From positions 66,980 through 130,979 of the forward strand of contig JBIKTR010000004.1 of assembly GCA_044348005.1 (NCBI GenBank): a stretch of DNA of 64,000 nucleotides. Direction: 5' to 3'. Below, piece after piece: positions 3,611-62,353 of the stretch. Numbering within the stretch: position 1 is the stretch's first letter; every line of letters starts with the position of its first letter. The translations under genes were made by a program, and so were the position numbers. The notes beneath the pieces were generated by a model. It saw nothing but the letters and a program-made list of their open reading frames with translations. It ran no database searches and was not told the origin of the DNA. This DNA comes from Vampirovibrionales bacterium (GTDB lineage: Bacteria > Cyanobacteriota > Vampirovibrionia > Vampirovibrionales > JAJTHC01).

Positions 3611-4096
3611 TTAGAAAAGAGCCCCCTCACCCCAACCCTCTCCCAGAGGGAGAGGGGGTAAAGCCAGCTTGCCGACGGCGCACTAAATGCGAGGCTTCCG
3701 AGACATTTTGCGCACGGCAGGAACGGAGCGAAAGCGAGAGGGGTGGGATAAACTCATTCACGAAGTGAATCTACTTCTTTAGGATGGAGAGGTTAGGAGA
3801 GGAAACCAACGGTTTTCTTTCCTAAGAGAAAAAGTCAGAGACTTTTTCGACGGGAGGGGGATTCTTAAGGGGGGCATACTGGGGGGAGGGAGGACGTAAC
3901 ACGTCCCTCCCCCCGCCGCCCCTTAAGCCGCTTTGGGGGTTTGGGGAGTCTTTGGCGGGACAAAGACCCCCAAGCACCAGCTCAAAAAGGGAACAAGAAA
4001 ACCCCCTCACCCCAACCCTCTCCCAAAGGGAGAGGGAGTAAAACGCCCTTTCGCAGAGTCTTCTATAATACAGAAAACTCCTAGGTTTAAAGGAAG
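3611..4096. repeat. Mosaic cluster of small palindromic repeats (families R1, R4, R5, R6)
   Basis: R1 hairpin ccctctccc-aga-gggagaggg at 3622-3663 and 4002-4044; 3661-3730 is the reverse complement of 12425-12511; 3735-3835 matches 20896-20996; 3884-3997 is near-identical to 25272-25398. Confidence 0.85.
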
Positions 4097-8075: not shown

Positions 8076-9257
8076 TCAAAAGTTGAGCGTTTCGGCGTAA
8101 CCCGCGAGTTCTACATAGGCCCTGCCTTGCACCGGCGTTTGGCCCCGCGTGCCTGTAACAAGGTTCGCCCCTTCCCAATAGCTTAACGCCCTTTGCTTAG
8201 AAAAATAGAGTTCCTGTTCAGCCAAGGCAGGCGTTACGCGTAAGTTCAGCTTTAGGGCAGGCACCTTTAGTTCCCACGCACTGGGGTAGTTTACCCCACT
8301 TTGCGCACTCTTCCACCGGTTCAACACCTTTAATTCAAGTTCTTTTGCGGTGAATCGAATCACTTGGCCCGTTTTGCTCACCCACGTGGCGCCACTTTGC
8401 GGAGAAATCCCGCCATTTTTTTCACGCATGAAGTACAGCATCAGTTCTTGCCCGTCGTCTAACTGAATGGCAAACCAGTCCCACCCCACTTGTGTTTTAC
8501 TTAATTGAGACGAGCCAAACTCGTGATCAAACCAACTGTTGCCTGTTACTTGAAACACACGATCCTTCAAACGGGCGTGGGGGTCTTTGAGCGTCACGTG
8601 GCCCGTGGTTGAAATGTGGGTAAAACTATAGTACATGGACGCACAACTGGCACAGCTCCCTTTTTTAGAATAGCCGTTTGACGTTCCGTGAAAGACCTTG
8701 TCCTTCTTGGGAACCAAGTGTAAATCAAGCGAAAAGTGGGTGTCCTGCACGCTTAAATCCCACCGAGGGAGAGCCTCTTTTGGGTGGGGCCGTTCTTTGA
8801 GGCTCAGGCTTTTGGCCATAAAGCGCCACGGTTCTACTTTAACAACGTCACGAAAGGGGTTTTGGCGTTCATAGGCCGTGCTATAATAAAAATGCTTACC
8901 GCTTAGATCGCTCAAGGCCACATGAACCATGTACAGCTGTTGAGGCTTCCACGCACTGGATCTTAGCGTCAAGCTTTGTACCGCAGTGGGGCGTGAAAGT
9001 CGAAACAAGGTGGCCTCATACCCAAAGTGATGCGGGGCTTGAAAGGGCTGCCAAGGCGTGGCCAAATGACCCGTGGTGTACCACCATTCATTGGCGTAAT
9101 CAGGGTGTTCACCCTGATCTTGCGGGAATTGCCAGCGGTAATTAGGTTTAGCGATTAAAAACGGCGTGGTTGAAGATCCGCTGGCGTGAGCGGGTGGGCC
9201 ATTCAGCGAAAGCACCGTTGCGACCACGGTTAATACGAGTAAAATCATCCGCCACAT
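8076..9257 (-). CDS. AttH/CrtC-like lipocalin-domain secreted protein (hydroxyneurosporene synthase family)
   Basis: Signal peptide MWRMILLVLTVVATVLS; motif WQFPQDQGEHPDYANEWWYTTGHL typical of AttH/CrtC; ORF extends to 9413. Confidence 0.7.
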   Translation of the reverse strand: MWRMILLVLTVVATVLSLNGPPAHASGSSTTPFLIAKPNYRWQFPQDQGEHPDYANEWWYTTGHLATPWQPFQAPHHFGYEATLFRLSRPTAVQSLTLRSSAWKPQQLYMVHVALSDLSGKHFYYSTAYERQNPFRDVVKVEPWRFMAKSLSLKERPHPKEALPRWDLSVQDTHFSLDLHLVPKKDKVFHGTSNGYSKKGSCASCASMYYSFTHISTTGHVTLKDPHARLKDRVFQVTGNSWFDHEFGSSQLSKTQVGWDWFAIQLDDGQELMLYFMREKNGGISPQSGATWVSKTGQVIRFTAKELELKVLNRWKSAQSGVNYPSAWELKVPALKLNLRVTPALAEQELYFSKQRALSYWEGANLVTGTRGQTPVQGRAYVELAGYAETLNF

Positions 9258-9289
9258 CGCGTCGTTTCCTTTTGTTTGCTTCTGCTTAT

Positions 9290-9620
9290 CCTGTAGTATT
9301 TTAAAGAGTTTTCCATACAGTAGGCTAGACAAGGAGCCTAGATTATTTTGTGAAGGAGTGTAGATAGACCTACATGACTGAACAAAATAATCGTAGCGAC
9401 AAAGTATAGACACTGTAGGGGAAATTATTTAAAACACTATAACATAAATCTACAGGGGAGTAGACCGAATCTTTGTTGTCGACGTATACTTAATTTTATA
9501 AGTTTACGAAGCTGTCTTTACTCCCTCTCCCTATGGGAGAGGGTTGGGGTGAGGGATTCGGGATGCCCTATTGGAGCTGGTGTTTCCCTCATCCTAGCAT
9601 AGCCCGCCATAGGCGAGGCG
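9290..9620. repeat. Intergenic repeat cluster (family C element plus inverted R1 element with GWGEGFGMPYWSW extension)
   Basis: 9519-9560 is the reverse complement of the R1 consensus; 9300-9420 shares acagtaggcta..ggagcctagatt and cgtagcgacaa with 39700-39830 and 54525-54650. Confidence 0.6.
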
Positions 9621-9698
9621 TGCGACCTAAGGGAGGAGGGACAAAGCAAAATAGACTTTCACAGAGCTGTTTATATCAAGAAATTACCAAACGCAAGG

Positions 9699-10859
9699 AT
9701 GCCCATGAATCAGTTTAAAGATGCGTCTATTGTTCTAACTGGCGGGGGTACGGGTGGTCACCTCTACCCAGCGCTTGCCGTGGCCGATGCCTTGGTGCGC
9801 GATTTCAGCTTCCCGCTAGAAAACATCACCTATATTGGCAATGAAGCCAGTTTAGAATCTCAAAAAGTGCCCACTAAAGGCATTCCCTTTCTTCCACTGG
9901 TCAGCCATGGCATGCCACGTTCCAAAAACCCGCTGGCTCTGCTGAAATGGGCGTTTGAAATGCTTAAAGCCACGGCTTTGGCCGCACGGTATTTAAAGGC
10001 CTTAAACGCCCAAGCCGTTCTAGGCACAGGGGGCTATGTGTCAGGCCCCGTGTTACTGGCGGCGTTTGCCTTAAAAATCCCTTTTGTGGTGCATGAAAGC
10101 GATGCCATCCCCGGACTCGTCAACCGATTGATGGCGCCCAAAGCCCGCGTCGTAACAGGTTCTTTTCCCGAAGTTCAAACCCGCCTAAAGCTCAAGCATG
10201 AACGCTTTCGGCTCACAGGGAACCCCGTCAATGAACGCATCGGCCAACTCAGTAAAGCAGACGCATTGACACAACTGGCGTATCTCCTGCCCCCAAACTG
10301 GAAAGAGTCTGACAAAATACTGCTGGTACTCGGCGGTTCGCAAGGGGCGTTAAGTCTGAATGAAGCCGTCTTTAATCAGGTAGAAGCGTTGATTGAGGCG
10401 GGCTATAAAATTGTGCATCAGTGTGGAAGCAAACATGTTCAGGGGTTGAAACAGGCGTTTCTTCAAAAATACGGCAGTGAAACCCCCTTTAATCAGGATT
10501 ATGTGTACCTGCCGTATATTGAAAACATGCCCGCGCTGTGGGCCTTGGCTGATGTGGCCCTATGCCGTGCGGGTTCCATGACGCTTTCAGAACTCTTTGC
10601 GTCTGAAACGCCCGCCATTTTGGTGCCTTACCCCTATGCGGCGCAAAATCACCAAGTCGCCAATGCCCGTGCAGTCGAAGCCCAAGGGGCTGCTCGTGTG
10701 GTGTTAGACGCCGAACTTAAGCGCGTTTCAATCGTTGAAGCGCTTAAGGCCCTTTGCCCCACGCAAGCCGACGCCTTAGCCATCAAGCAGGCGCTTAAAC
10801 AACTGGCCAAGCCCCACGCCACAAAAGCGATTGCGGAAATTTTACTTCAACTCTTATAG
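9699..10859 (+). CDS. murG: Undecaprenyldiphospho-muramoylpentapeptide beta-N-acetylglucosaminyltransferase
   Basis: LTGGGTGGHLYPALAVADAL N-terminal motif; GT28 C-terminal domain; ATG with AAGG RBS. Confidence 0.9.
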   Translation: MPMNQFKDASIVLTGGGTGGHLYPALAVADALVRDFSFPLENITYIGNEASLESQKVPTKGIPFLPLVSHGMPRSKNPLALLKWAFEMLKATALAARYLKALNAQAVLGTGGYVSGPVLLAAFALKIPFVVHESDAIPGLVNRLMAPKARVVTGSFPEVQTRLKLKHERFRLTGNPVNERIGQLSKADALTQLAYLLPPNWKESDKILLVLGGSQGALSLNEAVFNQVEALIEAGYKIVHQCGSKHVQGLKQAFLQKYGSETPFNQDYVYLPYIENMPALWALADVALCRAGSMTLSELFASETPAILVPYPYAAQNHQVANARAVEAQGAARVVLDAELKRVSIVEALKALCPTQADALAIKQALKQLAKPHATKAIAEILLQLL

Positions 10860-11753: not shown

Positions 11754-12131
11754 ATGAAATTATATGTGGGCAACGTGCCTTTTTCTGCGAACGATGATGA
11801 ATTGTTGGCGTTATTTGTAGACTGTGGCGAAGTGCAGTCTTGCCGCATCGTGATGGATCGTGAAACGGGCCGTTCTCGTGGATTCGCGTTTGTTGAAATG
11901 GACAACGACGAAGAAGCGAAAGTTGCCATTGAACGTTTAGATGGATTTGACATGAACGGTAAAGTCTTACGCGTCAACGAAGCACGTCCTCGTGAAGCGC
12001 GTCCAGTCGGCGGTGGCGGTGGCTATCGTGGCGGCGGCGGCGGCGGTGGCTATCGTGGCGGCGGCGGTGGCGGTGGACGCTCCGGTGGCGGCGGCTACGG
12101 CGGCGGCGGTGGTGGCGGTGGACGCTGGTAG
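11754..12131 (+). CDS. RRM-type glycine-rich RNA-binding protein
   Basis: RNP2 LYVGNV and RNP1 RGFAFVEM motifs; C-terminal GGGYRGGGGGG repeats; ~290 nt leader upstream. Confidence 0.85.
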   Translation: MKLYVGNVPFSANDDELLALFVDCGEVQSCRIVMDRETGRSRGFAFVEMDNDEEAKVAIERLDGFDMNGKVLRVNEARPREARPVGGGGGYRGGGGGGGYRGGGGGGGRSGGGGYGGGGGGGGRW

Positions 12132-12259: not shown

Positions 12260-12850
12260 CTTCTGTTCCCTCTCCTGATTTTGGCTAGCTCCGTTTAACG
12301 CTGGTGCTTGGGTTTCTCGCTCCCTTTTTGAGCTGGTGCTGTCAGAGACCTTTGCTCGCACAAAGGTTCTCCGACACCTCTAAATGCGCTTAAGGGAGGG
12401 AGGGTCTTGGTCGCCCCCCTCCCTTAAGAATCCCACCCCTCTCGCTTTCGCTCCGTTCCTGCCGTCCGCAAAATGTCTCGGAAGCCTCGCATTTAGTGCG
12501 CCGTCGGCAAGTTTTTCAGAAACCAACTTGTTCACAATTTTAAAATGAAGTGTTGATTTTTGACTCGTTGCACCAGCCGACGTCCAAGCACTAAATCCGA
12601 GCGGGTGAGCGCACTGCGAATCCCCGAGCGATTTTGCGGACGTCCCAAAGGTGCAAGTGGAACAAGCGAAGAGGTTGAGATGGGGGGTGGATTTTTAAGG
12701 AGGGGGGAAGAGAAGGAGAGCCGCAACAACTTCCTTCTCTTCCCCCCTCCTTGAACCGCCTTTAGAGGTGTTGGAGACCTTTGGCGGAGCAAAGGTCTCT
12801 GACAACGACCAGCTATAAAAACAAACGAGAAACCCAAAATCAGGAGAGGG
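12260..12850. mobile_element. Composite MITE-like element bounded by imperfect ~100-bp terminal inverted repeats
   Basis: 12270-12400 is the reverse complement of 12730-12850 (ccctctcctgattttgg / ccaaaatcaggagaggg; tgtcagagacctttgctcgcacaaaggt / ggagcaaaggtctctgacaa); interior carries an R6 copy (reverse complement of 3661-3730) and a 50-bp perfect palindrome at 12694-12745. Confidence 0.65.
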
Positions 12851-12859
12851 CTAGGGGGG

Positions 12860-12888
12860 TTGACGGCGGTTTTTCTTTGCGTTACGAT
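12860..12888 (+). promoter_or_regulatory. Family promoter TTGACG-17-TACGAT upstream of the 12939 gene
   Basis: Aligned with TTGACA-17-TACTAT modules at 21112-21140 and 22086-22115. Confidence 0.5.
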
Positions 12889-12938
12889 TCAAACTAAAGC
12901 TCACCCGCTTTTCTCTATTTACGTCTCTCCTTCAACCG

Positions 12939-13478: not shown

Positions 13479-13508
13479 ACTAGCTAGGGTTTGTGCTACA
13501 ATACAGGC

Positions 13509-15698
13509 ATGGATGCCTTAGCTCTTACCCCCCTTCAACAACGATGCCAAACGTGGTCGCAACTCGCCCAAGCCCGAAATTGGTCCGCGCTTGACGCCCT
13601 TAATCAAGACACGATCAACACCCTTAAACAGGCGTGGCAAGGCCACGGCGTGCTTGCCACCCTACAATGGAACCCCCACCCCGGAGATCTGGCGGGCAAC
13701 GCGCAACTGGTGGAACAGGCCATGCAATTCGCCGAAGCCCTCGGCGCCGATGCCCTTGTGCTTCCAGAACAAACGCTCTTGGGCTACCCCTTGCGAGACA
13801 TGCTCTTGCGCTTTCCCAAGCTGGTGAAAGACAATGAATCGGCGCTACAGGCCTTGGCGTTAAAATCAGGCCACACGCGGGTTTTTGTGGGTTTTGCTGA
13901 GCGTCGTTACGACGCGGATGAAGGCTGGGGCCATTCCTGGGGCAAGCCGTATTACAACAGCGTGGCCATTTTAGGCGGGGGCGTCATTCAAGGCGTGGTG
14001 CGAAAAAGCCTGTTGCCGAATTACCATGAATTTGAAGATTCTCGGGTGTTTGAAGCCAGCGAAACCCCCGGCGTCCAGCGATGGGAACTCCCTCACCCCA
14101 ACCCTCTCCCAGAGGGAGAGGGAGTAAGACAGGGGGCTGTGGCCTTAGAACCCTCTCCCTCTGGGAGAGGGCAGGGTGAGGGTTTCGACCAGCTCGAGGG
14201 GGGGGAAGACCCTCATCCTAACCTTCTCCCAGAGGGAGAAGGAACAAAACCCCCTCACCCCAACCCTCTCCCAGAGGGAGAGGGAGTAAAAGACCCCCTC
14301 GACGCCTACGGCAACATCACCATTCACGGACGCAAGTTCGCCGTGACGGTGTGTGAAGACCTATGGGCGAACGAACCGAATCAACACCCGTGGTACAAGC
14401 AAAACGTCGTCGCCCCGCTCATGCAAGGGCATCCCGATGTGCTGGTGAACCTGTCGTCGTCGCCGTCTCGGGCGGGCAAGGAATACCGCAGGCAGTCGCT
14501 CTTGCGTTCGATTGCCACGCAGTACCGCACCCCCATTCTCTACGTCAACCAAGTCGGCGCGGTGGATGAACTCATCTTCGACGGAGGCTCTCGGTTGGTG
14601 GGGGCGCACGGCGAAATGCTCAGTCGTTCGCGCTTGTTTGAAACGCAGTTTAGCCTGCATCATCTGCAAAACACGGCCTTTCACACCCTTGAAGACTGGG
14701 TGCCTGATGTGGAACTTTCCCAACGAAGCCTGCCCAACGATGTGTTTGACCCCTACGATCCAAGCGATTTGCCGCGCACGTATGCCGCCCTGACCTGCGG
14801 GATTCGCGATTACTTCGACAAATGCGGATTCACGCGCGCGGTGTTGGGCCTTTCTGGCGGACTCGATTCCGCCGTCAATGCCGTGTTAGTGGCGGATGCC
14901 TTGGGGGCTGAAAACGTGCTAGCCTTTAGCTTTCCTTCTGAGCTCACGCCTGCTGACAATAAAGACGACGCCCTACAACTCGCCCAAAATCTTGGCATCG
15001 GCTGGGTGGAAATCCCTATTTCGGCGATGCAATCGGCGTTTTTAGAGGGCATTGACGCCGAACGCCAAACGCTAGAATCGTTGTGGGGCAAGCCGACTAG
15101 CGAAAGTTTTGCGAAAGACAACGTACAAGCCATGAGCCGTGCGACGCTGTTGAGACTCATTGGCAATGATTACCGCGCCCTGCCCATTGCCACCAGTGAC
15201 AAAAGCGAGTTTTACATGGGTTACGCCACCGTGAATGGGGATATGTCTGGGGCGTTGGCGCCGTTGGGCGATGTGTGCAAAACCAAGGTGCGCGCCTTGG
15301 CCCGCTGGATCAATCAACAGCGCGGGGGGGTGATACCGCAAGCCGTGGTGGAACGTCCTTCGGGGGCGGATTTGGCGGTGAATCCGCAAACAGGCCAACT
15401 GTTGACGGCCGAAGAAGCGTTGATGCCCTATGAAGTGATTGACGAGTTGATTTGGCGGATTGAAGCCCACCACCTAGATGCCGCCCGCCTAAGCACCCTG
15501 CTGTGGAGCTGGGAACGCACGCACGGTAGACTTGAACCCACGCAGAAGGCGGCGTGGGTGGGTAAGTTTTTTAGGCGCATGCAGGCCAGTGTGTTTAAGT
15601 GGTGGGTGGCCCCGCCGATGTTGCTGGTGGACGCCAACGGCACGCTGGCAAAATCGGCGTACCACCCCGTGATTACCGCAATGAAGACGCTATACTAG
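13509..15698 (+). CDS. nadE: Glutamine-dependent NAD+ synthetase (nitrilase domain plus NAD synthetase domain) carrying an in-frame 70-aa repeat insertion
   Basis: N-terminal CN-hydrolase region (VCEDLWA); C-terminal NadE (LGLSGGLDSAV P-loop-like SGGxDS); ATG at 13509, the ORF can extend to TTG 13491. Confidence 0.85.
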   Translation: MDALALTPLQQRCQTWSQLAQARNWSALDALNQDTINTLKQAWQGHGVLATLQWNPHPGDLAGNAQLVEQAMQFAEALGADALVLPEQTLLGYPLRDMLLRFPKLVKDNESALQALALKSGHTRVFVGFAERRYDADEGWGHSWGKPYYNSVAILGGGVIQGVVRKSLLPNYHEFEDSRVFEASETPGVQRWELPHPNPLPEGEGVRQGAVALEPSPSGRGQGEGFDQLEGGEDPHPNLLPEGEGTKPPHPNPLPEGEGVKDPLDAYGNITIHGRKFAVTVCEDLWANEPNQHPWYKQNVVAPLMQGHPDVLVNLSSSPSRAGKEYRRQSLLRSIATQYRTPILYVNQVGAVDELIFDGGSRLVGAHGEMLSRSRLFETQFSLHHLQNTAFHTLEDWVPDVELSQRSLPNDVFDPYDPSDLPRTYAALTCGIRDYFDKCGFTRAVLGLSGGLDSAVNAVLVADALGAENVLAFSFPSELTPADNKDDALQLAQNLGIGWVEIPISAMQSAFLEGIDAERQTLESLWGKPTSESFAKDNVQAMSRATLLRLIGNDYRALPIATSDKSEFYMGYATVNGDMSGALAPLGDVCKTKVRALARWINQQRGGVIPQAVVERPSGADLAVNPQTGQLLTAEEALMPYEVIDELIWRIEAHHLDAARLSTLLWSWERTHGRLEPTQKAAWVGKFFRRMQASVFKWWVAPPMLLVDANGTLAKSAYHPVITAMKTLY
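14086..14295 (+). repeat. Four palindromic repeat units inserted in frame within nadE
   Basis: R1 units at 14089-14136 and 14253-14295 and R2-like units at 14148-14196 and 14210-14250 translate as LPHPNPLPEGEGV...PSPSGRGQGEG...PHPNLLPEGEGT..PHPNPLPEGEGV between VQRWE and LDAYGNITIHG. Confidence 0.85.
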
Positions 15699-16444: not shown

Positions 16445-16459
16445 GGGGGGGGGGGGGGG
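16445..16459. repeat. 15-nt poly-G (poly-C on the coding strand) tract 29 nt upstream of the 16415 start codon
   Basis: Uninterrupted G15 directly abutting the conserved leader ttaactctcctaatgaaaggaa. Confidence 0.9.
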
Positions 16460-16639: not shown

Positions 16640-17175
16640 ATAGAACCCTCCCTCCTCCTAGCCTCCTCCCTTAGGGAGGAGGAACAAGAACCCCCTCACC
16701 CCAACCCTCTCCCAGAGGGAGAGGGAGTAAATACAGAACCCTCCCTCCACCTAACCTCCTCCCTAAGGGAGGAGGAACAGAACCCTCTCCCTAAGGGAGG
16801 AGGAACAAGAACCCTCTCCCTTAGGGAGCACGCCTCGCCGATGGCGGGCTACGCAGGGTGAGGGAAACGACCAGCTCCAGTGGGGAAGAGTCCCTCCTCC
16901 TAGCCTCCTCCCTTAGGGAGGAGGAACAAGAACCCTCTCCCTTAGGGAGAGGGCAGGGTGAGGGAAACGACCAGCTCCAGTCGGGAAGAGTCCCTCCTCC
17001 TAACCTTCTCCCAAAGGGAGGAGGAATAAGAACCCTCTCCCTTAGGGAGAGGGCAGGGTGAGGGAAACGACCAGCTCCAGTCGGGAAGAGTCCCTCCTCC
17101 TAGCCTCCTCCCTTAGGGAGGAGGAACAGAACCCCCTCACCCCAACCCTCTCCCAGAGGGAGAGGGGGTAAATAC
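16640..17175. repeat. BIME-like tandem mosaic array of hairpin units (families R1, R2, R3)
   Basis: About 11 units: R3 cctcctccc-tta-gggaggagg (LLLASSLREEEQ), R2 ccctctccc-tta-gggagagggcagggtgagggaaacgaccagctccag (three copies), and R1 at 16686-16730 and 17133-17175; irregular unit order with no unique spacers. Confidence 0.85.
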
Positions 17176-17207
17176 AGAACCTCAAAAAAGAAAGAGAGAC
17201 CCTGAAC

Positions 17208-19145
17208 ATGAACGCCCCCTATTCCCCCGATCAAAACCCCTACGTCCACCTTGCGAGCTTTTGCCGAACGGCCGTGTGGCAAGAAATGGATGCCATTAAC
17301 GAAGCGCTGCCCCCTGAAGCCCAGTTTTTGGCCCGCCTGCAAAGCCCCCCCGCCTGGGATGCCCGCCGCCAAGCCATCATTGAAAAACGCACCGCCCTTT
17401 ACGAACGCCTCAAGCAAGACGACGCGCTGGCCGAACTCATGCACCACGACTGCCGAAACAACATCCTGCTGTGGTTTCGCTACTTCGCGTGGACGTACGA
17501 CCCACGCCCCAACCCCTTTCAAAACGGCAATCGAAGCATTGGGCGCGTGCCCTTTGTGCTGTACCCCTTTCAAATGGAAGTCGTCTTGCGCTTGAATGAA
17601 GCCATTGAATTGGGGGAAGATTTACTGGTGGAAAAAAGCCGAGACATGGGCCTTTCTTGGTTAATTAGTTTGGTGTTTCAGTACCGCTGGTTGTTTCATT
17701 CAGGCCAGCAATTTTTGGTGGGCAGTCGTAAATACGGCCATGCAGACACGCGCGGCGATCTTTCCACGCTGATGGAAAAATGCCGTTTCAACCTGCGTGA
17801 ACAGCCCACCAATATGTTGCCTGCGGGCTTTGACTTTCGCAAGCACGATGTCGCCGGTCGTCTGCTGAATCCGCAAAATGGCAATACCATTATTGCTGAA
17901 GCCACTACGGAAAACTTTGCGCGGGGGGGGCGTTATTCCGCCGTATTGCTGGACGAATTTGCGTTTTGGATGTGGGATGATGGCGCCTATGCTGCGGCGG
18001 GTCAGTCCACGCTGTGTCGCTTGTTGGTGTCAACGCCCAACGGTCGAAAAAACCGCTTTGCCCTAGAACGCTTTTCAGGCCTTACCCCCGTGCTAACCGT
18101 GCATTGGAGCCTTCACCCTTTTAAGGACAAGGTGTGGTACACCGCACAGCAACGGCGCCTGTTGAAGCATGAAATCGCGCGAGAGCTGGATATTAGCTAC
18201 GAATACTGCAATCGAGATCGCGTGTTTGAAGAGTTTACCGCTCAACATGTGGCGCACGTGGCGTATAATCCGGATTTGGAGATTTTGCGTTCGTGGGATT
18301 TTGGGTACCATACGCCTGCGGTGTTGGCCTTACAGCGGGACGAATGGGGCCGTGTGGTGGTGTTGAAAGAATGGGTGGGCCAACGCGTGGTGCTCAAAAA
18401 CTTTGCCCAGCAGGTGAAAGACGACTGCGTGGCGATGTTTGGCCCCAATGCGCGCTTTCGCGATGTGTGTGACCCTGCGGGGCATCAGCATAACGACAAA
18501 TCTGAAAACACCAGTATTGAAGTGCTCAATCGCATGGGTATTCACCCTGTGGGCGTGCGATGTGGCGTGGTTGCTAGCATTGACAAGCTTCGCCACCTGA
18601 TGATTGAAGAGCGCGATGTGCCAGTGTCCCTCACCCCAGCCCTCTCCCAAAGGGAGAGGGAGCAAGGCGACCCTCACCCCAACCCTCTCCCAGAGGGAGA
18701 GGGGGTAAATACAGAACCCTCTCCCTTAGGGAGAGGGCTGGGTGAGGGACACGACCAGCTCCTGTGGGAACAAGGCATCCCTCCACCTAGCCTCCTCCCT
18801 AAGGGAGGAGGAACAAATGCCAGTGAAGAAGCCGTCTTCATGCGTGAAGGCCAGCACATGGTCAAATCCCCCGCCTTTTTGGTGGATGCTCAACATTGCC
18901 CCACGCTCATTGACGCCTTGCAAGGGGGGTATCGCTATGTGTCGAATGATTCGGAAGAACTGGCGCAGGAGCATCCCTTTGAAGATGTGGCGGATGCCTT
19001 GCGTTACGCCGTGTGGGAATTGGGCAAACTGCTGATGGATTCGTCTGATTGGGCGCGGGACTTGCGAAAGGAGCGGTATCAGAAGTGGGAAGCGTTGGAA
19101 AAGTTGCGTCGCTACAACCAGCGCCGTGGGCAGTGGTATGCCTAG
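17208..19145 (+). CDS. Phage terminase large subunit (Terminase_6-like) with in-frame repeat insertion
   Basis: KSRDMGLSWL P-loop variant (KSRQ.G.S type), VLLDEFAFW Walker B, C-terminal nuclease region WDFGYHTPAVLAL...DVCDPAG; no portal, capsid or small-subunit genes nearby. Confidence 0.75.
   Translation: MNAPYSPDQNPYVHLASFCRTAVWQEMDAINEALPPEAQFLARLQSPPAWDARRQAIIEKRTALYERLKQDDALAELMHHDCRNNILLWFRYFAWTYDPRPNPFQNGNRSIGRVPFVLYPFQMEVVLRLNEAIELGEDLLVEKSRDMGLSWLISLVFQYRWLFHSGQQFLVGSRKYGHADTRGDLSTLMEKCRFNLREQPTNMLPAGFDFRKHDVAGRLLNPQNGNTIIAEATTENFARGGRYSAVLLDEFAFWMWDDGAYAAAGQSTLCRLLVSTPNGRKNRFALERFSGLTPVLTVHWSLHPFKDKVWYTAQQRRLLKHEIARELDISYEYCNRDRVFEEFTAQHVAHVAYNPDLEILRSWDFGYHTPAVLALQRDEWGRVVVLKEWVGQRVVLKNFAQQVKDDCVAMFGPNARFRDVCDPAGHQHNDKSENTSIEVLNRMGIHPVGVRCGVVASIDKLRHLMIEERDVPVSLTPALSQREREQGDPHPNPLPEGEGVNTEPSPLGRGLGEGHDQLLWEQGIPPPSLLPKGGGTNASEEAVFMREGQHMVKSPAFLVDAQHCPTLIDALQGGYRYVSNDSEELAQEHPFEDVADALRYAVWELGKLLMDSSDWARDLRKERYQKWEALEKLRRYNQRRGQWYA
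18625..18822 (+). repeat. R1-R1-R2-R3 repeat units inserted in frame within the terminase gene
   Basis: Translate as SLTPALSQREREQGDPHPNPLPEGEGVNTEPSPLGRGLGEGHDQLLWEQGIPPPSLLPKGGGTNA, in the same orientation and frame type as the nadE insertion. Confidence 0.85.
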
Positions 19146-19149
19146 TCGG

Positions 19150-19503
19150 TTAAATTTCTTTGAGCCTGTAGAGCTTAAACACTTGAGACACGACTTGCCC
19201 TTGCGTCACCTGCAAACGGCTGGATTCCGCCTTAATGAAATTAACGACCTCCTCATCCACACGGAGCGTCAGGATTTTAGCCCCTGTTTTGGGCTTGCGT
19301 CCTGCTTTTTTCATGGGCTTAAACTTGCCCTGCAAAAAAGCTTCGTAAGAAGAGTCAAGCATCTCGTAAAACATTTCGTAAGCGTCTTCTCGTTTTTCTT
19401 CGACCCCTGCAATGTTAATACACAGGGGAGAGGTGACGATAAACGCGTGGTCTTCTTCGCTCCACTTGCAGGTGACACTGTTTTTGATGGCGTCTAAATC
19501 CAT
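19150..19503 (-). CDS. hicB: HicB-family antitoxin
   Basis: N-terminal HicB tadpole-like region (HAFIVTSPLCINIAGVEEKREDAYEMFYEMLD) plus C-terminal RKPKTGAKILTLRVDEE RHH-like tail; 1-nt overlap with hicA. Confidence 0.7.
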   Translation of the reverse strand: MDLDAIKNSVTCKWSEEDHAFIVTSPLCINIAGVEEKREDAYEMFYEMLDSSYEAFLQGKFKPMKKAGRKPKTGAKILTLRVDEEVVNFIKAESSRLQVTQGQVVSQVFKLYRLKEI

Positions 19504-19727
19504 TAGGCTTTTCCTTCTTGTTTAAGTAACTGTAAAAAAGTTTTGACGTAATGCGGTTTGATGTATCGTTTACGGCCTTTACTGTGAAAAATGGCGAAGT
19601 TCAAAAGGTTCACACCGTTTTCATCGGCGATGTAGTGGTGACTTTTACTTGGAAGAATCGTCCAGCCGGCTTGTTTAACCAGTTTTTCAAATTGACTCAA
19701 ATCCATGGGTTTATAATGAGACGGCAT
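19503..19727 (-). CDS. hicA: HicA-family mRNA interferase toxin
   Basis: LSQFEKLVKQAGWTILPSKSHHYI...HSKGRKRYIKPHYVKTFLQLLKQ matches the HicA/YcfA fold pattern; start uncertain (ATG 19727 with AGAAAGAG SD, 19706 or 19748 possible). Confidence 0.65.
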   Translation of the reverse strand: MPSHYKPMDLSQFEKLVKQAGWTILPSKSHHYIADENGVNLLNFAIFHSKGRKRYIKPHYVKTFLQLLKQEGKA

Positions 19728-19981
19728 GAGATCTCTTTCTTGGCACATTTTATAATTATATATTAGCGTAATACAAAATAAATTACAAGTGCTTTAAGCA
19801 AAAAAACTGGCGTTGGAAAAGTTGCGTCGCTACAACCAGCGCCGTGGGCAGTGGTATGCCTAGTCGGTTGCGGGCGATGCTTCCTGTTTGCTTTCTGTGC
19901 TAGCCCGCCCCCTCGACAAGTGCGTGAAAATAGGGTAGACTAGGGGCAGTTGTTGCGTTGTGTGTGGAAGGAAATGCCCCC

Positions 19982-20859: not shown

Positions 20860-21110
20860 GAAAGTGGATTTACTCCCACTCCCTTAGGGAGAGGAAAACA
20901 AGCTTCTCATTCACGAAGTGAATCTTCACCTTTAGGAAGGAGAGGTTGGGAGAGGAAACCAACGGTTTTCTTTCCCAAGAGAAAAAGCTTGCTTTTTCGA
21001 CCATGGTGGGGTGAGGGATTTGGGATGTTCAGTTATAGCTGGTGTTTCCCTCCCTTAGGTCGCACGCCTCGCCTATGGCGTGCTCCCTAAGGGAGGAGGG
21101 AGAGCGAGGG
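20860..21110. repeat. Intergenic repeat cluster (R1 fragment, R4 copy, inverted R1 with GWGEGFGMF extension)
   Basis: 20896-20996 matches 3735-3835 (attcacgaagtgaat palindrome); 21005-21050 is the reverse complement of R1 plus the extension seen at 9560-9600 and 56040-56075. Confidence 0.6.
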
Positions 21111-21111
21111 G

Positions 21112-21140
21112 TTGACAGCCGTGTTTCTTTGCTTTACTAT
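21112..21140 (+). promoter_or_regulatory. Family promoter TTGACA-17-TACTAT with conserved ~65-nt 5' UTR
   Basis: Perfect -35 element, 17-bp spacer, TACTAT; UTR tcaagctaaagcacgatcgcttttatctacgacgccccctcatcctgacgaaag is 95% identical to 22118-22170. Confidence 0.6.
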
Positions 21141-21203
21141 TCAAGCTAAAGCACGATCGCTTTTATCTACGACGCCCCCTCATCCTGACGAAAGGTCTCT
21201 TCT

Positions 21204-21812
21204 ATGCGACTTCAGCTTTCTGCGTTAGCCGCCAGCCCGTTGAATCCCCAACAACAAGCCCCATTGACCCACAACAACAATAGTCTAGTCAAAAATACCC
21301 CGCCCGCTTTGGCCCAACGTCAGGGGTTGACGGAAGTTCTGGTTCAAGAGTTAGAACACCAATATACTCAAATAAGATTCAAATTAAGAAGTGTAGATGT
21401 TACCACTACTTTTGAAAAGTTTGCAAGATTAAGACAATTAGAAACACTCATTAATAAGGCTGAGTGTTTCATCAATTGTTTAAATCATCCTGAGTGGGCG
21501 ACTACAGACTGTGCTGGAAAGGTTAAGATCCTTAAGGATTTTGCAAGAGAATTAGGTCTATCTCGGACAATCAACGTAGCTACTTTTAAGACACATATTA
21601 CACACTCCAATAATAATGACTTGCCAAATAGAGCCTTGCGATCTGAATTGAATAGATTTAAAGAACGATTGAAAGCATATTTAGAAGGTGCGTTTAACAA
21701 TGAAGAAATACAGCGTTATTTAAAGCATGTACGTACAAAGAGTCGCATTCCTAGTGATAATGATCGTGAAATACATCCATGGCGTTATCCCAATCTATTG
21801 ATCCTAGCCTGA
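21204..21812 (+). CDS. Paralog-family protein (MRLQLSALAASPLNPQQQAP...AQRQGL N-terminus, unique AT-rich helical C-terminus)
   Basis: First ~45 codons alignable with the 22179, 2906 and 12939 genes; remainder unrelated. Confidence 0.6.
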   Translation: MRLQLSALAASPLNPQQQAPLTHNNNSLVKNTPPALAQRQGLTEVLVQELEHQYTQIRFKLRSVDVTTTFEKFARLRQLETLINKAECFINCLNHPEWATTDCAGKVKILKDFARELGLSRTINVATFKTHITHSNNNDLPNRALRSELNRFKERLKAYLEGAFNNEEIQRYLKHVRTKSRIPSDNDREIHPWRYPNLLILA

Positions 21813-21905: not shown

Positions 21906-22085
21906 GGTCGCCACGCCATAGCTTGCCACATATACCGCCTTTACCACAGATTCATCAAACATAAAAACGCCTTCTTTCTTTTTTGTGTGCTGTGGCTATT
22001 ATACCCCCATCCTGAAAAAGAAACCACTGCTGGCTCGCTTCCTGCCCCCGCTCCCTTTGGGAGAGGGTTGGGGTGAGGGGGAAGT

Positions 22086-22115
22086 GTTGACAGGGGGGAG
22101 GCTTTGCGATACTAT
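22086..22115 (+). promoter_or_regulatory. Family promoter TTGACA-17-TACTAT with conserved UTR
   Basis: Aligned with 21112-21140. Confidence 0.6.
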
Positions 22116-22178
22116 TCAAGCTAAAGCACGATCGCTTTTCTCTACGACGCCCCCTCATCCTGACGAAAGCTCTCTTCT

Positions 22179-22775
22179 ATGCGACTTCAACTCTCTTCGT
22201 TGCCTGCCCGCCCGATGAATACCCAACAACAAGCCCCATTTACCCCCACCAATAACAAAAGTAAAGTGAATAATTCTACCTCCGCTTTGAACCAGCGTCA
22301 GGGGTTTACAACGAAACTATTAGAAAAAATGATAGAGTCTTCAAACGCTTCACAAGGATTAATCGAGAAGATTAAAAATAGTCGTCCTGCTGATAAACAC
22401 AAGCAATTAGAAAAGTTAATAAAAACTATTGAGCAGGCTCACTATATTACAACTTCTTTAAGCGATCCGATCTGGTTAGCATTAGATGAATTTTCTAGTC
22501 TTTTAGCTATGAATAATCTTGATTCTCTAAGGCGTTTAGGTACAGCTTCTGGGCTAAAAACAGCACTTAGGTCTTTTAAACAAAGTAGACCTCGTCCAAC
22601 TGACGAAGTGATAACCCAGTTAGCAGAAGGTTTTTATGCTTTACGAAACTCGTTGGAAGCTTTTGTACTAGAACAGCAAAATGAAGCAAAATTAAAAAAA
22701 TATATACTTGGAAAAACAAGGTATGGATTATGGCATCCTCGTTATAAAACAACTAATGCCCCAGTCGACCTTTAG
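22179..22775 (+). CDS. Paralog-family protein (MRLQLSSLPARPMNTQQQAP...NQRQGF N-terminus, unique C-terminus)
   Basis: Shared promoter, UTR and N-terminus; stop lies 2 bp from the convergent folD stop. Confidence 0.6.
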   Translation: MRLQLSSLPARPMNTQQQAPFTPTNNKSKVNNSTSALNQRQGFTTKLLEKMIESSNASQGLIEKIKNSRPADKHKQLEKLIKTIEQAHYITTSLSDPIWLALDEFSSLLAMNNLDSLRRLGTASGLKTALRSFKQSRPRPTDEVITQLAEGFYALRNSLEAFVLEQQNEAKLKKYILGKTRYGLWHPRYKTTNAPVDL

Positions 22776-25189: not shown

Positions 25190-25450
25190 GGGTGAGGGGG
25201 CTTTCTCATTCCGTTTAACGCTGGTGCTGTCAGAGACCTTTGCTCGCACAAAGGTTCTCCGACACCTCTAAATGCGCTTAAGGGAGGGAGGGAGGACGTA
25301 ACACGTCCCTCCCCCCGCCGCCCCTTAAGCCGCTTTGGGGGTTTGGGGAGTCTTTGGCGGGACAAAGACCCCCAAGCACCAGCTCAAAAAGGGAACAAGA
25401 AAACCCCCTCACCCCAGCCCTCACCCAGAGGGAGAGGGAGCGAGAAAACC
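25190..25450. repeat. Intergenic mosaic repeat cluster (R5, R1 variant, TIR-like segment)
   Basis: 25205-25290 matches 12300-12400; 25272-25398 is near-identical to 3884-3997; R1 variant at 25406-25445. Confidence 0.75.
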
Positions 25451-31571: not shown

Positions 31572-32735
31572 ATGGCAATGACCAGCTATACAACGCTAGA
31601 GGTGGAAAACTTCAAGGGCATCCGTAAGATGAAACTTGAGGGCTTGGGCATGGTGAATGTGTTTGTGGGGGGCAACAACGTCGGCAAGACCTCCGTTTTG
31701 CAGGCGTTGAATATACATTTTAATAACTCTCAAAATAGACATAATGAGGTTGTGGAAAATTTGAAAGGTCATTTTTACGATGGTGTATTAACCCATTTAA
31801 TTGACGAATTAAATCCTGTTAATAATTTTTATAAGACTCTTACGGATAATGTAAAAATACAGATTGAGACGGATTTAGACTGTAGCTTCATAAGTGCGAG
31901 ATTCGATTCAAGCAGTGCAAGCCCTAGTATTGAAATAGAACCATCAATCGAGTTGTCTTATTCCCAAAAAGGAGTATTATGTAACACTCATAGAACTCCA
32001 TCAATAATCACGATCTTAGTAGATAGTTTGGAAGAAATAAAAACAAGAAAAGTTAGTAATATACTCGAAGTTTATCGTAACTTTAATAAACAATCTCATT
32101 ATATTGGAAGCAAAGCTGATGTTACAAAATTTTCAGAACATCTGTTTCAAACTTATATTGAAAATAAGCAAAAGAACAAGGTTATTACTTTATTGCAAAA
32201 ATCAATTCAACCTAACCTTATTGATATCGTGTATGCACCTGCAAGTAAGCTACTATGTGAGTTGAGTGATTATCCTAAGATGATTCCCTTAGACGTCATG
32301 GGTGACGGTTTTGTTAAGCTGTTGGGTTTGGCTTGTCTAATAGGTATACCTAAAAATATTTTCCTTGTTGACGAACTTGAAAACGGGTTTCATTACAGCG
32401 TCCAAGAAGACATGTGGCGGATGATCCTCACCGCGGCGAAAGAAGACGGTACGCAGTTCTTCTTCACCACCCACAGCTACGAGGTGCTGGAATCGTTGAA
32501 CGCCATGACGCAGAAAATCACCGCTGAATGGGAACAAGAAAAAGCTGAAGGCTATCAAGACGGCAAACTCCTTGTCGGTGAAAACAAAACGCCTATGGAA
32601 CCTGTCTGTGTGTTTGAACTTGAAAAAAGTACAGATGATGTGGTGACATACAAAAGATTTGCAGGAAAATCTTTAAATGGGGCAATAAAGCGTCACATGG
32701 AATTAAGAGGGAAAGGTGCAAATGCTCATGGCTAA
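31572..32735 (+). CDS. AAA15/ABC-type ATPase of a predicted two-gene defence module (AriA/OLD-ATPase-like)
   Basis: Walker A GGNNVGKTS, signature-like MGDGFVKLL, Walker B IFLVDELENGFH, H-loop FFTTHS; AT-rich (~35% GC); 3' end overlaps the next gene by 20 nt. Confidence 0.75.
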   Translation: MAMTSYTTLEVENFKGIRKMKLEGLGMVNVFVGGNNVGKTSVLQALNIHFNNSQNRHNEVVENLKGHFYDGVLTHLIDELNPVNNFYKTLTDNVKIQIETDLDCSFISARFDSSSASPSIEIEPSIELSYSQKGVLCNTHRTPSIITILVDSLEEIKTRKVSNILEVYRNFNKQSHYIGSKADVTKFSEHLFQTYIENKQKNKVITLLQKSIQPNLIDIVYAPASKLLCELSDYPKMIPLDVMGDGFVKLLGLACLIGIPKNIFLVDELENGFHYSVQEDMWRMILTAAKEDGTQFFFTTHSYEVLESLNAMTQKITAEWEQEKAEGYQDGKLLVGENKTPMEPVCVFELEKSTDDVVTYKRFAGKSLNGAIKRHMELRGKGANAHG

Positions 32736-33555
32736 TCCTTCCGTTTTAATCATTGTCGAAGGTGAGACAGATAAAGAATGTATCCGTAAAATTTTCGACT
32801 TCAATAAAGAAGACGCTGAAATCCACGCTTTATCTGACTATATACCGTTTGACGAAAACTTGTGTCAATACGAACATACAGGTGGATTCAACCATTTAAA
32901 AGACACTTTGGAAAAACGATTGCTTAGTGACATACTGCCACTTCTTGATGCGGAATGTCTTAAAGCGATTGTTTTAATTGTAGACGGCGATAATGAACCT
33001 ATCTCTAAGCGTCTTCAAGATATTCAAAAGGCTTTTAGTTCCATAAAAGAATTCCAAGAGACAGGACTTATCCCTGATTTTACAGAAAAAGACTGTAATT
33101 CTTTTAGACCTTTAACGATACAGACAAACTCCAAAAAATATCCTTTAGAATTTGGAATCTATATTTTTCAGGATTCAACATATCAAGATTTGGAATCTTT
33201 TTTATTCGCTACAGCAAAAACAAAGAAGCCTACACATCATAAGATCGTGGCTAAGTTTAGAGAAACGTTAAAAAAAGAACTCGTTGATTCAGAGGGGCAG
33301 TATATTGGTCCGAAATATAAAAACGCAGAAGGTAAACATAACGGTTCTTTAAATAAAGCCATTTACCAGATTTATTTACATACCCAACAAGAGCTAGATG
33401 GCTATAGGCGTAATATAGATAAACGACTCGACAAATTTTTTGATTTTTCATTTACAGGGATTGATCAAACCTCACCCATGTGGAACATAAAGAATTGCTA
33501 TGAAGACTTGAAACGCATCATAAATCAAGACGTTACGGCAAAAGAGAGTCCTTAA
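32716..33555 (+). CDS. Standalone TOPRIM-like protein (DUF4435/RloB-like; AriB-like nuclease partner)
   Basis: LIIVEGETDK (TOPRIM Glu) and LIVDGDNEP (DxD) motifs; translationally coupled to the upstream ATPase; AT-rich. Confidence 0.6.
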   Translation: MQMLMANPSVLIIVEGETDKECIRKIFDFNKEDAEIHALSDYIPFDENLCQYEHTGGFNHLKDTLEKRLLSDILPLLDAECLKAIVLIVDGDNEPISKRLQDIQKAFSSIKEFQETGLIPDFTEKDCNSFRPLTIQTNSKKYPLEFGIYIFQDSTYQDLESFLFATAKTKKPTHHKIVAKFRETLKKELVDSEGQYIGPKYKNAEGKHNGSLNKAIYQIYLHTQQELDGYRRNIDKRLDKFFDFSFTGIDQTSPMWNIKNCYEDLKRIINQDVTAKESP

Positions 33556-35563: not shown

Positions 35564-35698
35564 CGTATTTTTTGAAAAAAGTATTGACAAATTGTATCTA
35601 GTTTGTCATAATCAGTATACATACCTTACCTGGTCGGTAAGGCGGCCTAGTTGGAAACTCTAGGCCTCTTTTATTTTTTGGATGTTTTGGGGATCGTG

Positions 35699-36367
35699 AT
35701 GAAGCGGGTTCATGTGTTTATTGATGGCTTTAATATGTACCATGCTTTAGAAGAATACCGTAGACATACAGGTGAAAATCTTAAATGGTTGAATTATAGA
35801 AGCCTTATGGAAAGTTTCGCTTCATCTGAAGAAATAGTAACAAGCATACACTTTTTTACTGCGATTGATGAGAAGCGTCCCGACGATGTCATTCAACGAC
35901 ACCATAATTATATTGGGGCTTTAAAAACTCAAAACATCGAAGTATATCGAGGGGTTTTTAAGCACCGCAAGCAAACTTGCAAGTCCTGCCACGCTTCATG
36001 GGAAAAAGCTGAAGAAAAAGAAACTGACGTTCGTATCGCCTGTAAAATTTTAGAATTTGCGATGAAAGACTTCTTTGATGAGTTTTGGCTCGTTTCGGGG
36101 GATAGTGATTTTGTGCCTGTTATTCAATCTTTTAAATCCCTTTTTCCTCACAAATCCATTAAGGTCATTATTCCCCCAAAATATAACCGAAATGGTCAAT
36201 ACGGTAATCCCTATGCGGCTAAAACATTCGCTAAAAGTAAAAAAAGCCAAGCAGAAACGCATCAGTTGGGATTTAGAGCATGCTCTAAGCACCCTTTGGC
36301 GGATGAACTCATCAACCCCAAAGGACGACGCTTTACAAATCCGTATCTCCAAAATAGTAGCCCATAA
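35699..36367 (+). CDS. NYN-domain (LabA/DUF88-like) protein
   Basis: VHVFIDGFNMYH and LVSGDSDFVPV NYN catalytic motifs; AT-rich; TTGACA-17-CATAAT promoter at 35594-35622; ORF extends to 35651. Confidence 0.7.
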   Translation: MKRVHVFIDGFNMYHALEEYRRHTGENLKWLNYRSLMESFASSEEIVTSIHFFTAIDEKRPDDVIQRHHNYIGALKTQNIEVYRGVFKHRKQTCKSCHASWEKAEEKETDVRIACKILEFAMKDFFDEFWLVSGDSDFVPVIQSFKSLFPHKSIKVIIPPKYNRNGQYGNPYAAKTFAKSKKSQAETHQLGFRACSKHPLADELINPKGRRFTNPYLQNSSP

Positions 36368-39639: not shown

Positions 39640-39835
39640 AAGCGAAGGTATTTTAAATGACGTGAAAAAATGACTAAATTGAGCCTTCTATAGGGTTCGA
39701 AAGATAAAATAGGCGATGAGGCTATTCTAGGAGCCTAGATTTTTTTGTGCGGGCGTGTACACAGACGACCATAACCAAACAAAAAAATCGCAGCGACAAC
39801 GAAGAGACCATAGACCGTTTTATCTCGCGAACACG
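39640..39835. repeat. Family C dispersed repeat
   Basis: ggctattctaggagcctaga and cgcagcgacaacgaagagaccatagaccgttttatc shared (inverted) with 54525-54650, and partly with 9300-9420 and 56070-56110. Confidence 0.55.
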
Positions 39836-61361: not shown

Positions 61362-61462
61362 GGGGGAAGCTCCGCATTGATTAAACCACTCCATTATCCC
61401 ACAGTTTACAAAAGTTCACAAGCAAAGGGGGTGAATCTATTGGGCTAATCGAAGTTCACCTA

Positions 61463-62353
61463 CTACGGCACCATTTTTTCTAACTTATATTCTAAAATAT
61501 CGGTGGCACCCGCTTTTACGAGTTCAGGGATCAACACATGGACTTGCATGGCAGGCACAGCCACTTTAACCGCAAAGCCTTCATGATTGTACAAATCACT
61601 CACCGTGGGGGAGTTCATGGAATGGCCCGCCAGTAAGGCAATCACGCCGTCAAAAGCCGTCGTACTCACGTTCATTTCTAGTAACACGCGTTGTGTGGCC
61701 CGTAAGGTCGCTTCCATCAGCATTTTCATTTCTTCGATTTTTTGACGCTTGGCCGGATCGTTCATGGCTTGTTTGCTCGCTATAAAGCGAGTCGTCGACG
61801 TGGTAATAACATCCACAATCGCCAAACGGTTCATACGAAGCGTGGTGCCTGTGGCGGTATTGTCTACAATAATATCGGCATCTTCAGGCGGAAACGCTTC
61901 TGTTGCGCCATAACTTTGTAAGTAAACCGCGTTTAGGGCGTGCTTTTTGATGAAGTCTTCAGTGCATCGCTTATATTCGCTGGCCACCACGATTTGACGG
62001 CTCTTATTTTCAAAAGGATTTTCTTCGCTATTGAGTAAGTCTTCAGGAATAGCCGCGACAATTTGAACGGGGTCGTATCCCAAATCAAGCACAGTGACGA
62101 CATCGGCTTGATGTTCATAAATCCAATCTCCCCCTGTAAAGCCACAATCATGACGCCCCAGTTCCACTAAAGCAGGAATATTTTGGGCTTTCATGATTTT
62201 CGCTTCTATGTAGGCATCACTACATTGTGGGCGGTAGCTCCGGCTGGTGGACTTGAACTTCACCCCAATGTTACCCAGCAAGGCCAGTACTTTTTCTTGA
62301 ATACGGCCTTTGGGTAAAACCAGTTTTAGGGTAGGCGTTTGTTCAGTGGTCAT
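61463..62353 (-). CDS. hisG: ATP phosphoribosyltransferase, long form
   Basis: LVLPKGRIQEKVLALL and DCGFTGGDWIYE motifs; C-terminal regulatory domain present; start at MTTEQT. Confidence 0.8.
   Translation of the reverse strand: MTTEQTPTLKLVLPKGRIQEKVLALLGNIGVKFKSTSRSYRPQCSDAYIEAKIMKAQNIPALVELGRHDCGFTGGDWIYEHQADVVTVLDLGYDPVQIVAAIPEDLLNSEENPFENKSRQIVVASEYKRCTEDFIKKHALNAVYLQSYGATEAFPPEDADIIVDNTATGTTLRMNRLAIVDVITTSTTRFIASKQAMNDPAKRQKIEEMKMLMEATLRATQRVLLEMNVSTTAFDGVIALLAGHSMNSPTVSDLYNHEGFAVKVAVPAMQVHVLIPELVKAGATDILEYKLEKMVP

Follow-up and report, generated by a model that had tools for sequence, protein, structure and literature searches.

The BoxC repeats, which are also named PIT (potential intrastrand triplex) or triplex-motif (TM, TMECO) repeats, are built of three arms of 9 nucleotides (nt), with a hairpin and a third arm that is able to pair as a triplex (PMC4666352), and they have also been treated as a switch between G-quadruplex and hairpin (PMC5100583). 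In Escherichia coli their copies lie strictly ("always") between genes (PMC4666352; PMC5100583 agrees), they are linked with local rearrangement between strains (PMC4666352) and no transposase is found near them (Holder et al. 2015, PMC4666352). Here, we analyze an array of repeat units that lies inside a terminase-like gene's open reading frame (ORF), in a stretch of 64,000 nt from a Vampirovibrionales bacterium (contig JBIKTR010000004.1, positions 66,980 to 130,979), called the window hereafter and numbered from its first letter. We consider it fairly probable that the units are known TM repeats that gathered in a loop permissive to them, in a gene that is functional, and are translated as a disordered segment, with selection keeping the frame.

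Another described system is that of the Rickettsia palindromic elements (RPEs), which are small palindromic repeats present in-frame in unrelated housekeeping genes (PMC10969869, section 4.2) and give an extra peptide segment to proteins that keep their function, with the copies being both genic and intergenic (PMC10969869). Drawn as an analogy, with no homology claimed, the RPEs would be the closest behavioural counterpart of the array in the terminase-like gene and of a second genic array, in the NAD+ synthetase (NadE) gene. The RPEs are about 100-150 bp long, are confined to one genus, have each their own conserved ORF and are presumably unrelated in sequence, whereas the units in the window are 33-43 nt long, are present in many phyla, occur in stacked arrays and are read in several frames; the size and the several frames point to an analogy only.

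Identity and arrangement of the repeat units

The initial annotation had placed four repeat units within the C-terminal nuclease region of the terminase ORF, and both the pattern search and the repeat search find them there. The four three-arm units, at 18628-18811, add about 66 residues and no stops. In the ORF's frame the 198 nt at 18625-18822 read SLTPALSQREREQGDPHPNPLPEGEGVNTEPSPLGRGLGEGHDQLLWEQGIPPPSLLPKGGGTNA, as had been claimed, while each of the other five frames contains stops. With the two hairpin cores used as patterns, the window gives 19 matches to CCCTCTCCCNNNGGGAGAGGG and 17 to CCTCCTCCCTNNGGGAGGAGG, and dinucleotide-preserving shuffles give 0. The repeat search places the copies in the terminase-like gene at 18627-18664, 18670-18707, 18713-18784 and 18778-18815, and those elsewhere in the window at 14089-14290, 16649-17170 and about 10 more sites.

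The units, denoted as R1 (two copies), R2 and R3, are listed in Table 1 together with the companion arrays. Copy 1 and copy 2 of R1 lie 43 nt from each other and differ in reading frame, R2 is the R1-type unit in inverted form, and R2 together with R3 makes an inverted-pair composite of a kind that is tandemly repeated upstream, three times with a period of 100. The array in the NadE gene, i.e., the other of the two genic insertions that had been reported, does exist and has the same building blocks as that in the terminase-like gene: a unit, an inverted unit plus a variant unit, and a unit. Outside genes the spacings between units are 28, 42, 43, 50 and 100 nt.

Table 1. Positions of the terminase-like gene, its repeat units and the companion arrays in the window.
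Feature	Positions	Strand	Description
Terminase-large-subunit-like ORF, 645 amino acids (aa)	17208-19145	+	identified from PHROGs, PDB profiles and fold
Variable nuclease-domain loop	18612-18869	+	residues 469-554, 86 aa, between helix ...RHLMIEE and strand PAFLVD
R1 copy 1	18628-18660	+	CCCTCACCC-CAG-CCCTCTCCC-AAA-GGGAGAGGG, read LTPALSQRERE
R1 copy 2	18671-18703	+	CCCTCACCC-CAA-CCCTCTCCC-AGA-GGGAGAGGG, read PHPNPLPEGEG
R2	18717-18748	-	on the + strand CCCTCTCCC-TTA-GGGAGAGGG-CT-GGGTGAGGG, read PSPLGRGLGEG
R2-R3 composite, 99 nt	18719-18817		inverted pair
Spacer after R2	18749-18778		ACACGACCAGCTCCTGTGGGAACAAGGCAT; contains CGACCAGCTCC
R3, variant three-arm unit	18779-18811	+	CCCTCCACC-TAG-CCTCCTCCC-TAA-GGGAGGAGG, read PPPSLLPKGGG
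NadE array	14090-14284	+	in the CN-hydrolase domain of NAD+ synthetase (ORF 13491-15698)
Units of the NadE array, forward	14090, 14210, 14252 (starts)	+
Unit of the NadE array, inverted	14151-14182	-
Intergenic array of three-arm units	16640-17180		just upstream of the start codon of the terminase; contains a tandem (3 x 100 nt, 16853-17152)

By their structure and sequence, the units in the window are identified as the BoxC/PIT/TM repeat. The arms CCCTCTCCC, GGGAGAGGG and GGGTGAGGG equal those of E. coli TMECO copies in the Table 1 of PMC4666352; for example, the reverse complement of 18671-18703 is CCCTCTCCC-TCT-GGGAGAGGG-TTG-GGGTGAGGG, to be compared with TMECO no. 17, which is CCCTCTCCCTGAGGGAGAGGGTTAGGGTGAGGGG (PMC4666352). 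The triplex pairing rule is satisfied at 9 of 9 positions, with at most one hairpin mismatch, in all the 21 units of the window, the four in the terminase-like gene included. The purine arm has the variants GGGAGAGGG, GGGAGGAGG and GGGAGAAGG, each of which is mirrored by changes in both the other arms; this three-way covariation holds within genes too, where R3 is a covarying variant. Based on the pairing rule and the hairpin prediction, the units would be able to form the triplex.

The repeat is widespread. At least 120 stretches in species-representative genomes match the exact 33-nt pattern, ranging over Pseudomonas, Variovorax, Enterobacter, Chloroflexota, Planctomycetota, Verrucomicrobiota, Acidobacteriota and Vampirovibrionales, and a 38-nt pattern matched 111 metagenome contigs. 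A pattern for the R2 spacer, GGGAGAGGGCNGGGTGAGGGNNNCGACCAGCTC, matched nothing in the metagenome contigs, and the spacer is present in only one related locus. In the window Rfam gave, at the gathering thresholds, the tmRNA and nothing else, with no family for the three-arm repeat; at E up to 1 it gave only spurious matches to miRNA hairpins, far under the cut-off.

The units resemble the described BoxC/TM repeats in arm sequences, in size (33-37 nt), in occurring as singles or inverted pairs and in wide taxonomic spread, as well as in having no linked transposase among the ORFs scanned and in being tied to local sequence turnover between close strains. The latter is seen at both genic sites and in the spacer upstream of the terminase-like gene, all of which differ between the window and the close relative L001 (synonymous divergence, dS, of 0.11) and others. 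Unlike the E. coli copies, units here and in several other sampled phyla lie inside ORFs, where they are presumably translated, and the units here form long mixed arrays with the variant arms GGGAGGAGG and GGGAGAAGG. The intergenic location does not hold for the window, with copies lying within the ORFs 17208-19145 and 13491-15698; it describes the E. coli copies and is no structural criterion. Our literature search found no description of a BoxC/TM repeat within coding sequences.

[quoted passage not shown] Like these, the units are short, structured, non-coding, dispersed and sometimes nested, and the R2-R3 composites of 99-100 nt look like two inverted terminal repeats with a spacer between them. 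Unlike in these, no target-site duplication was found, and the three-arm mirror-repeat design is foreign to MITEs and REP/REPIN; moreover, no cognate transposase or REP-associated tyrosine transposase (RAYT) is seen in the window, for which most ORFs of at least 120 aa were scanned with Pfam, the scan for phage, integrase and transposase genes leaving out the ORFs at 44025-47810, 58863-61394, 61463-62425 and 62453-63979 and an unconfirmed ORF at 35651-36367. The units also lack a GTAG/CGTC tag of the kind described in PMC3733652.

The host gene and the loop that carries the array

Pfam and NCBIfam searches gave no match for the terminase-like protein, which was identified from PHROGs, from profiles of the PDB and from its fold. 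In PHROGs the 645-aa ORF matches phrog_2 (terminase large subunit, 1.5e-16). A profile of 65 homologues matches, in the PDB, the ATPase domain of T4 gp17 as well as the nuclease domains of two terminases, those of D6E and SPP1. The AlphaFold model (AF2), with a mean predicted local distance difference test (pLDDT) score of 87.1, has the large terminases of D6E, T4, HK97 and Sf6 as its best Foldseek matches, with E down to 2.5e-15. The protein has the composition of a terminase large subunit, namely an N-terminal ATPase domain with Walker motifs (GSRK at residue 172, LLDEFAF at 247), followed towards the C-terminus by an RNase-H-like nuclease domain that has the conserved acidic residues (WDFGY at 363, CDPAG at 421, EDVADALRY at 592). 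In the homologue alignment D249/E250, D364 and D422 are invariant; D593 is invariant in one alignment (A1) and nearly invariant in another (A2).

The initial annotation had asked whether the insert interrupts the RNase-H-like fold, and a comparison with the homologues places the insert in a loop of variable length across the 65 family members. The segment between RHLMIEE and PAFLVD has 0-6 residues in 52 of the 65 members and 8-108 residues in the rest, with several of the long inserts being unrelated in sequence. In the AF2 model pLDDT is below 50 at residues 487-520 and 523-540, i.e., only the insert is disordered, while the surroundings are confident, with strands at 468-472 and 544-555 on either side. 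Relative to the D6E terminase the insert site corresponds to the turn from helix to strand between ...GIRNVATALNKK (...ALNKK) and MILYND. The variation in loop length, the AF2 model and the D6E alignment together imply that, as modelled, the insert leaves the RNase-H-like fold unbroken and lengthens a loop which is by nature a hot spot of insertion.

The gene is live. The ratio of nonsynonymous to synonymous divergence (dN/dS), computed by the Nei-Gojobori method with four orthologues, is 0.11-0.23, none of the catalytic motifs is damaged, every relative has the ORF at full length, and there are relatives without all or part of the array, as expected for an insertion whose frame is kept in a working gene. 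A decayed pseudogene, which had been named as what would overturn the observation, is rejected by the dN/dS. It is extremely improbable that the gene is a decaying prophage remnant with the frame open by chance: the lone terminase gene, with other phage genes not found nearby, and the abundance of repeats around it would fit such a remnant, but besides the dN/dS, the full-length ORF in relatives and the confident AF2 model, the homologues are kept throughout Melainabacteria, in surroundings that are cellular, and the chance for both genic arrays to be open is only about 0.07 x 0.06, as calculated below.

The gene is an orphan, with no portal, capsid, small terminase or integrase gene nearby, and Melainabacteria at large conserve it, with purifying selection acting on it; the homologues come from Vampirovibrio and other Melainabacteria. 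The genes in its vicinity are those of MurG, the tmRNA, an RRM protein, NAD+ synthetase, a SIMPL-domain protein, FolD, Mur ligases, FtsW and similar, and the small ORFs adjoining it have no phage-family match in PHROGs. The terminase-like genes of the relatives (the loci labelled L001-L008, L129 and L130) have cellular surroundings too, with the neighbours differing between lineages. A prophage location was considered and rejected, as no phage, integrase or transposase genes are present in the ORFs scanned. Judging from sequence, the protein is a chromosomal ATPase-nuclease, possibly a domesticated one.

At the 3' end of the gene, an exact 60-nt direct repeat at 19092-19151, which includes the terminase stop codon, and at 19810-19869 brackets 19150-19748 and flanks a two-gene cassette on the minus strand, encoding proteins of 117 aa and 81 aa. 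The cassette resembles HicB/HicA by eye, and a hidden Markov model (HMM) search gave no match. The 117-aa protein is 96% identical to the product of the gene adjoining the terminase in the relative L004, while between the terminases themselves the identity is only about 82%, which suggests that the cassette is mobile and would target the 3' end of the terminase-like gene.

Reading frame, turnover and the origin of the array

We consider now the reading frame. Single units are open in 3-5 of the six frames and the R2-R3 composite in 2, while the two genic arrays, taken as a whole, have exactly 1 open frame of 6 each, which is the frame in use, and the intergenic array at 16640-17180 has 0 of 6. 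Over all windows and frames of the intergenic array, 7% are stop-free at a length of 198 nt and 6% at 207 nt, giving a chance of about 0.07 x 0.06, or about 0.004, that both genic arrays would be open without selection. Two open arrays are therefore improbable in the absence of selection, and purifying selection on the two genes would leave exactly these arrays. With one open frame of six in the genic arrays and none in the intergenic array, selection for an open frame suffices and a biased insertion mechanism is unneeded. Thus, of the previously suggested frame- or orientation-biased insertion or retention, the retention is upheld and the insertion bias is not required. The suggestion that the two genic insertions share the same orientation and frame is only partly borne out: most units are forward (+,+,-,+ in the terminase-like gene and +,-,+,+ in the NadE gene) and both arrays are open, but R2 is inverted and the R1 copies are in different frames.

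Genic copies elsewhere were surveyed by taking long ORFs spanning exact R1 copies and checking them against Pfam. From about 230 exact R1 copies of many phyla about 15 are Pfam-supported genic ones, which are too few for a firm test of bias. In the other phyla they occur in at least three frames and in both orientations. The frame PHP(N/S)PLPEGEG is found in YgiQ radical-SAM proteins (L020, L140), another radical-SAM protein (L065), a nucleotidyltransferase/kinase protein (L109), a Ser/Thr kinase-AAA protein (L160), a UvrA-like protein (L178) and UvrB (L132); the frame PSPQPSPxGRG in HsdR (L096), DnaE (L102), the linker of a lipoamide dehydrogenase (L203) and HrpA (L218); and the frame PLPxGEGWGEG in HlyD (L232), DegT (L229) and a MoCoBD-cytochrome c junction (L017). 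YgiQ carries the 33-nt repeat at a similar position in two different betaproteobacterial or metagenomic contigs. About 12 of the 15 copies are forward; because one reverse frame always carries TGA, the expectation is 3:2, against which the forward excess is not significant (binomial estimate, P ~0.09). There may be a mild preference beyond the avoidance of stop codons, for which peptides of greater hydrophilicity, or the G-rich strand being kept off the non-template strand, could be the source.

The relatives differ in the number of units. At the terminase site the complete Vampirovibrio sp. genome (L007) has no recognisable unit; L004 (82% protein identity) has one; L001-L003 (97% protein identity, dS 0.11) have R1-R1 and a short remnant; L008 (84% protein identity) has R2 with a nested extra element, followed by R3; and the window has R1-R1-R2-R3. 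R1 copy 1 is missing from L004 and L008, with a net difference of 36 nt relative to L004, and R1 copy 2 is the positional equivalent of L004's lone unit. At the NadE site the window carries four units against a single one in L001, the strain of 97% identity, and the two differ there by 180 nt. All the net genic differences, of 36, 99 and 180 nt, are multiples of three. No target-site duplication was found at the terminase array: the 8-nt TGCCAGTG at 18619-18626 and 18818-18825 was considered as a candidate and rejected, as the two copies are 199 nt apart and the right one is native in L004.

It is noted that short dispersed repeats are known to cause misassembly, and the array might then be an artefact, with repeats collapsed or mis-joined in a metagenome-assembled genome. 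We regard this as highly improbable, because the R1-R1 version is identical in the three independent assemblies L001-L003, R2-R3 is present with the same flanks in a fourth assembly (L008), and the frame and the flanking protein sequence are continuous.

The observations show which repeat this is, that it sits in a variable loop, that the gene is intact, that the relatives are polymorphic and how the frames are used. Starting from them, the origin of the array can be described as follows. The array would build up in a surface loop that is naturally tolerant, within the nuclease domain of a working chromosomal terminase-like protein, growing and shrinking by whole units where a unit already sits. 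The likely routes would be template switching or slippage during replication, or else other arrays recombining ectopically with this one, and the non-B DNA formed by the units would promote the gain and loss of units; a dedicated enzyme for unit addition is possible, with none seen. The array would be co-transcribed and translated with the gene into a disordered loop of 60-70 residues rich in proline, glycine and glutamate, this peptide probably having no function of its own. The open frame would then reflect survivorship: the versions that introduce a stop or a frameshift are lost from a gene under purifying selection, and the versions that survive have net lengths that are multiples of three and a single stop-free frame.

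Some points weigh against this explanation. The mechanism by which units are gained or lost is deduced indirectly, from the comparison of relatives. Two further points bear on the placement of the units: PHPNPLPEGEG is the commonest frame among the verified genic copies (about 8 of 15), and new units stand directly after a conserved ...GAACC tail, to which a site-specific enzyme would fit too. It could then be that the placement itself is biased in frame or orientation, for example by a single-strand transposase of the HUH/RAYT-like kind inserting 3' of a short target on one strand, which would give the genic copies a common orientation and register. Consistent with this, the units follow one another at the conserved ...GAACC|CC junction with no target-site duplication seen, which resembles insertion of the IS200/IS605 type, the C-rich strand is the coding strand for most units of both genic arrays, and the forward majority of the Pfam-supported copies elsewhere corresponds to this C-rich-coding orientation. 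However, an inverted R2 is present in both genes, the R1 copies in the terminase-like gene differ in frame, the intergenic spacings have no codon register, the Pfam scan of most window ORFs of at least 120 aa shows no transposase, and the orientation excess loses significance once the closed frames are counted. We thus consider a biased placement unlikely.

The remaining points concern the insert itself. The RNA of the insert segment has a predicted folding energy of -122.5 kcal/mol (z = -8.6), with R1 copy 1 pairing with the inverted R2, so that the mRNA of the insert is predicted to be very stably folded, and its translation is one that we infer. Moreover, the block at 18740-18839, which covers R2 in its 3' half, the whole of R3 and some 20 nt of the flank, is identical to positions 1825-1924 of L008 at 98 of 100 positions, against about 80% identity over the remainder of the gene. 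From this comparison of sequences an exchange between lineages or a strong constraint at the DNA level is suggested to be involved as well. The conservation of this block, the very stable predicted RNA structure and the presence of long inserts at the same loop in many family members would also fit the possibility that the P/G/E-rich loop has been co-opted, as a flexible linker, an interaction surface or a regulator of the nuclease, or that the mRNA or DNA structure regulates expression. However, close relatives hold 0, 1, 2 or 4 units, the same types of peptide are present in unrelated enzymes, most family members have no insert, and the conservation is at the level of the DNA arms, with their three-way covariation, rather than of the peptide. 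This co-option is, in our judgement, quite unlikely, and the accumulation of TM repeats in a permissive loop, with the frame kept by selection, stays the explanation that we prefer.

Other repeats in the window and implications

Several other features of the window are noted. In L001 the 540-nt intergenic array is replaced by about 770 nt of other small repeats (9200-9970), consisting of ACCAGCT-containing units and CAGAGACCTTTGC hairpins, and a run of 15 G at 16445-16459 lies just upstream of the array in the window. Dispersed repeat families of 80-165 nt and 78-96% identity, some ending in a triplex-motif unit, give pairs such as 3874-4038 with 25276-25440, 12323-12404 with 25211-25292, 3753-3834 with 20906-20987 and 9322-9411 with 39719-39808, making the region a mosaic of small nested repeats. 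The GGC/GGT-rich tandem repeat at 12008-12127 is the glycine-rich tail of the RRM RNA-binding protein. A leader with a near-consensus promoter (GTTGACA ... TACTAT) is present at 12859-12917, 21111-21169 and 22086-22144, preceding three small ORFs without a family match, of 179, 202 and 198 aa; two of the leader-plus-ORF starts, 21095-21280 and 22070-22255, are 84% identical over 186 nt. Finally, a stretch of low GC content at 31572-33555 (0.40 versus about 0.48) holds the genes of an AAA_15/AAA_21 ATPase and of a DUF3226 protein and may be a small defence-type islet.

The array does not point to a new molecular system. What it means is that a widespread repeat described as intergenic can occupy permissive loops of essential, conserved genes, adding disordered P/G/E-rich segments to their products. 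For annotation, the peptides PHPNPLPEGEG, PSPQPSPRGRG and PLPLGEGWGEG mark inserts derived from the repeat rather than domains. Arrays that differ between near-identical strains give a handle on the gain and loss of repeats, and they allow a test of the strand-dependent tolerance of non-B DNA within genes.

A broader possibility can also be put forward, tentatively and as one that we think less probable than its contrary. The BoxC/TM repeat, which for thirty years has been treated as a strictly intergenic curiosity, might be an actively turning-over element that colonises genes in-frame across phyla, a pan-bacterial counterpart of the RPEs, with its three-arm DNA being constrained even within ORFs. 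If this is true, the Vampirovibrio-like lineage, where strains of 97% identity differ unit by unit in two genes and one spacer, would be a natural system for studying how the repeat spreads, possibly by site-specific addition after the GAACC tail.

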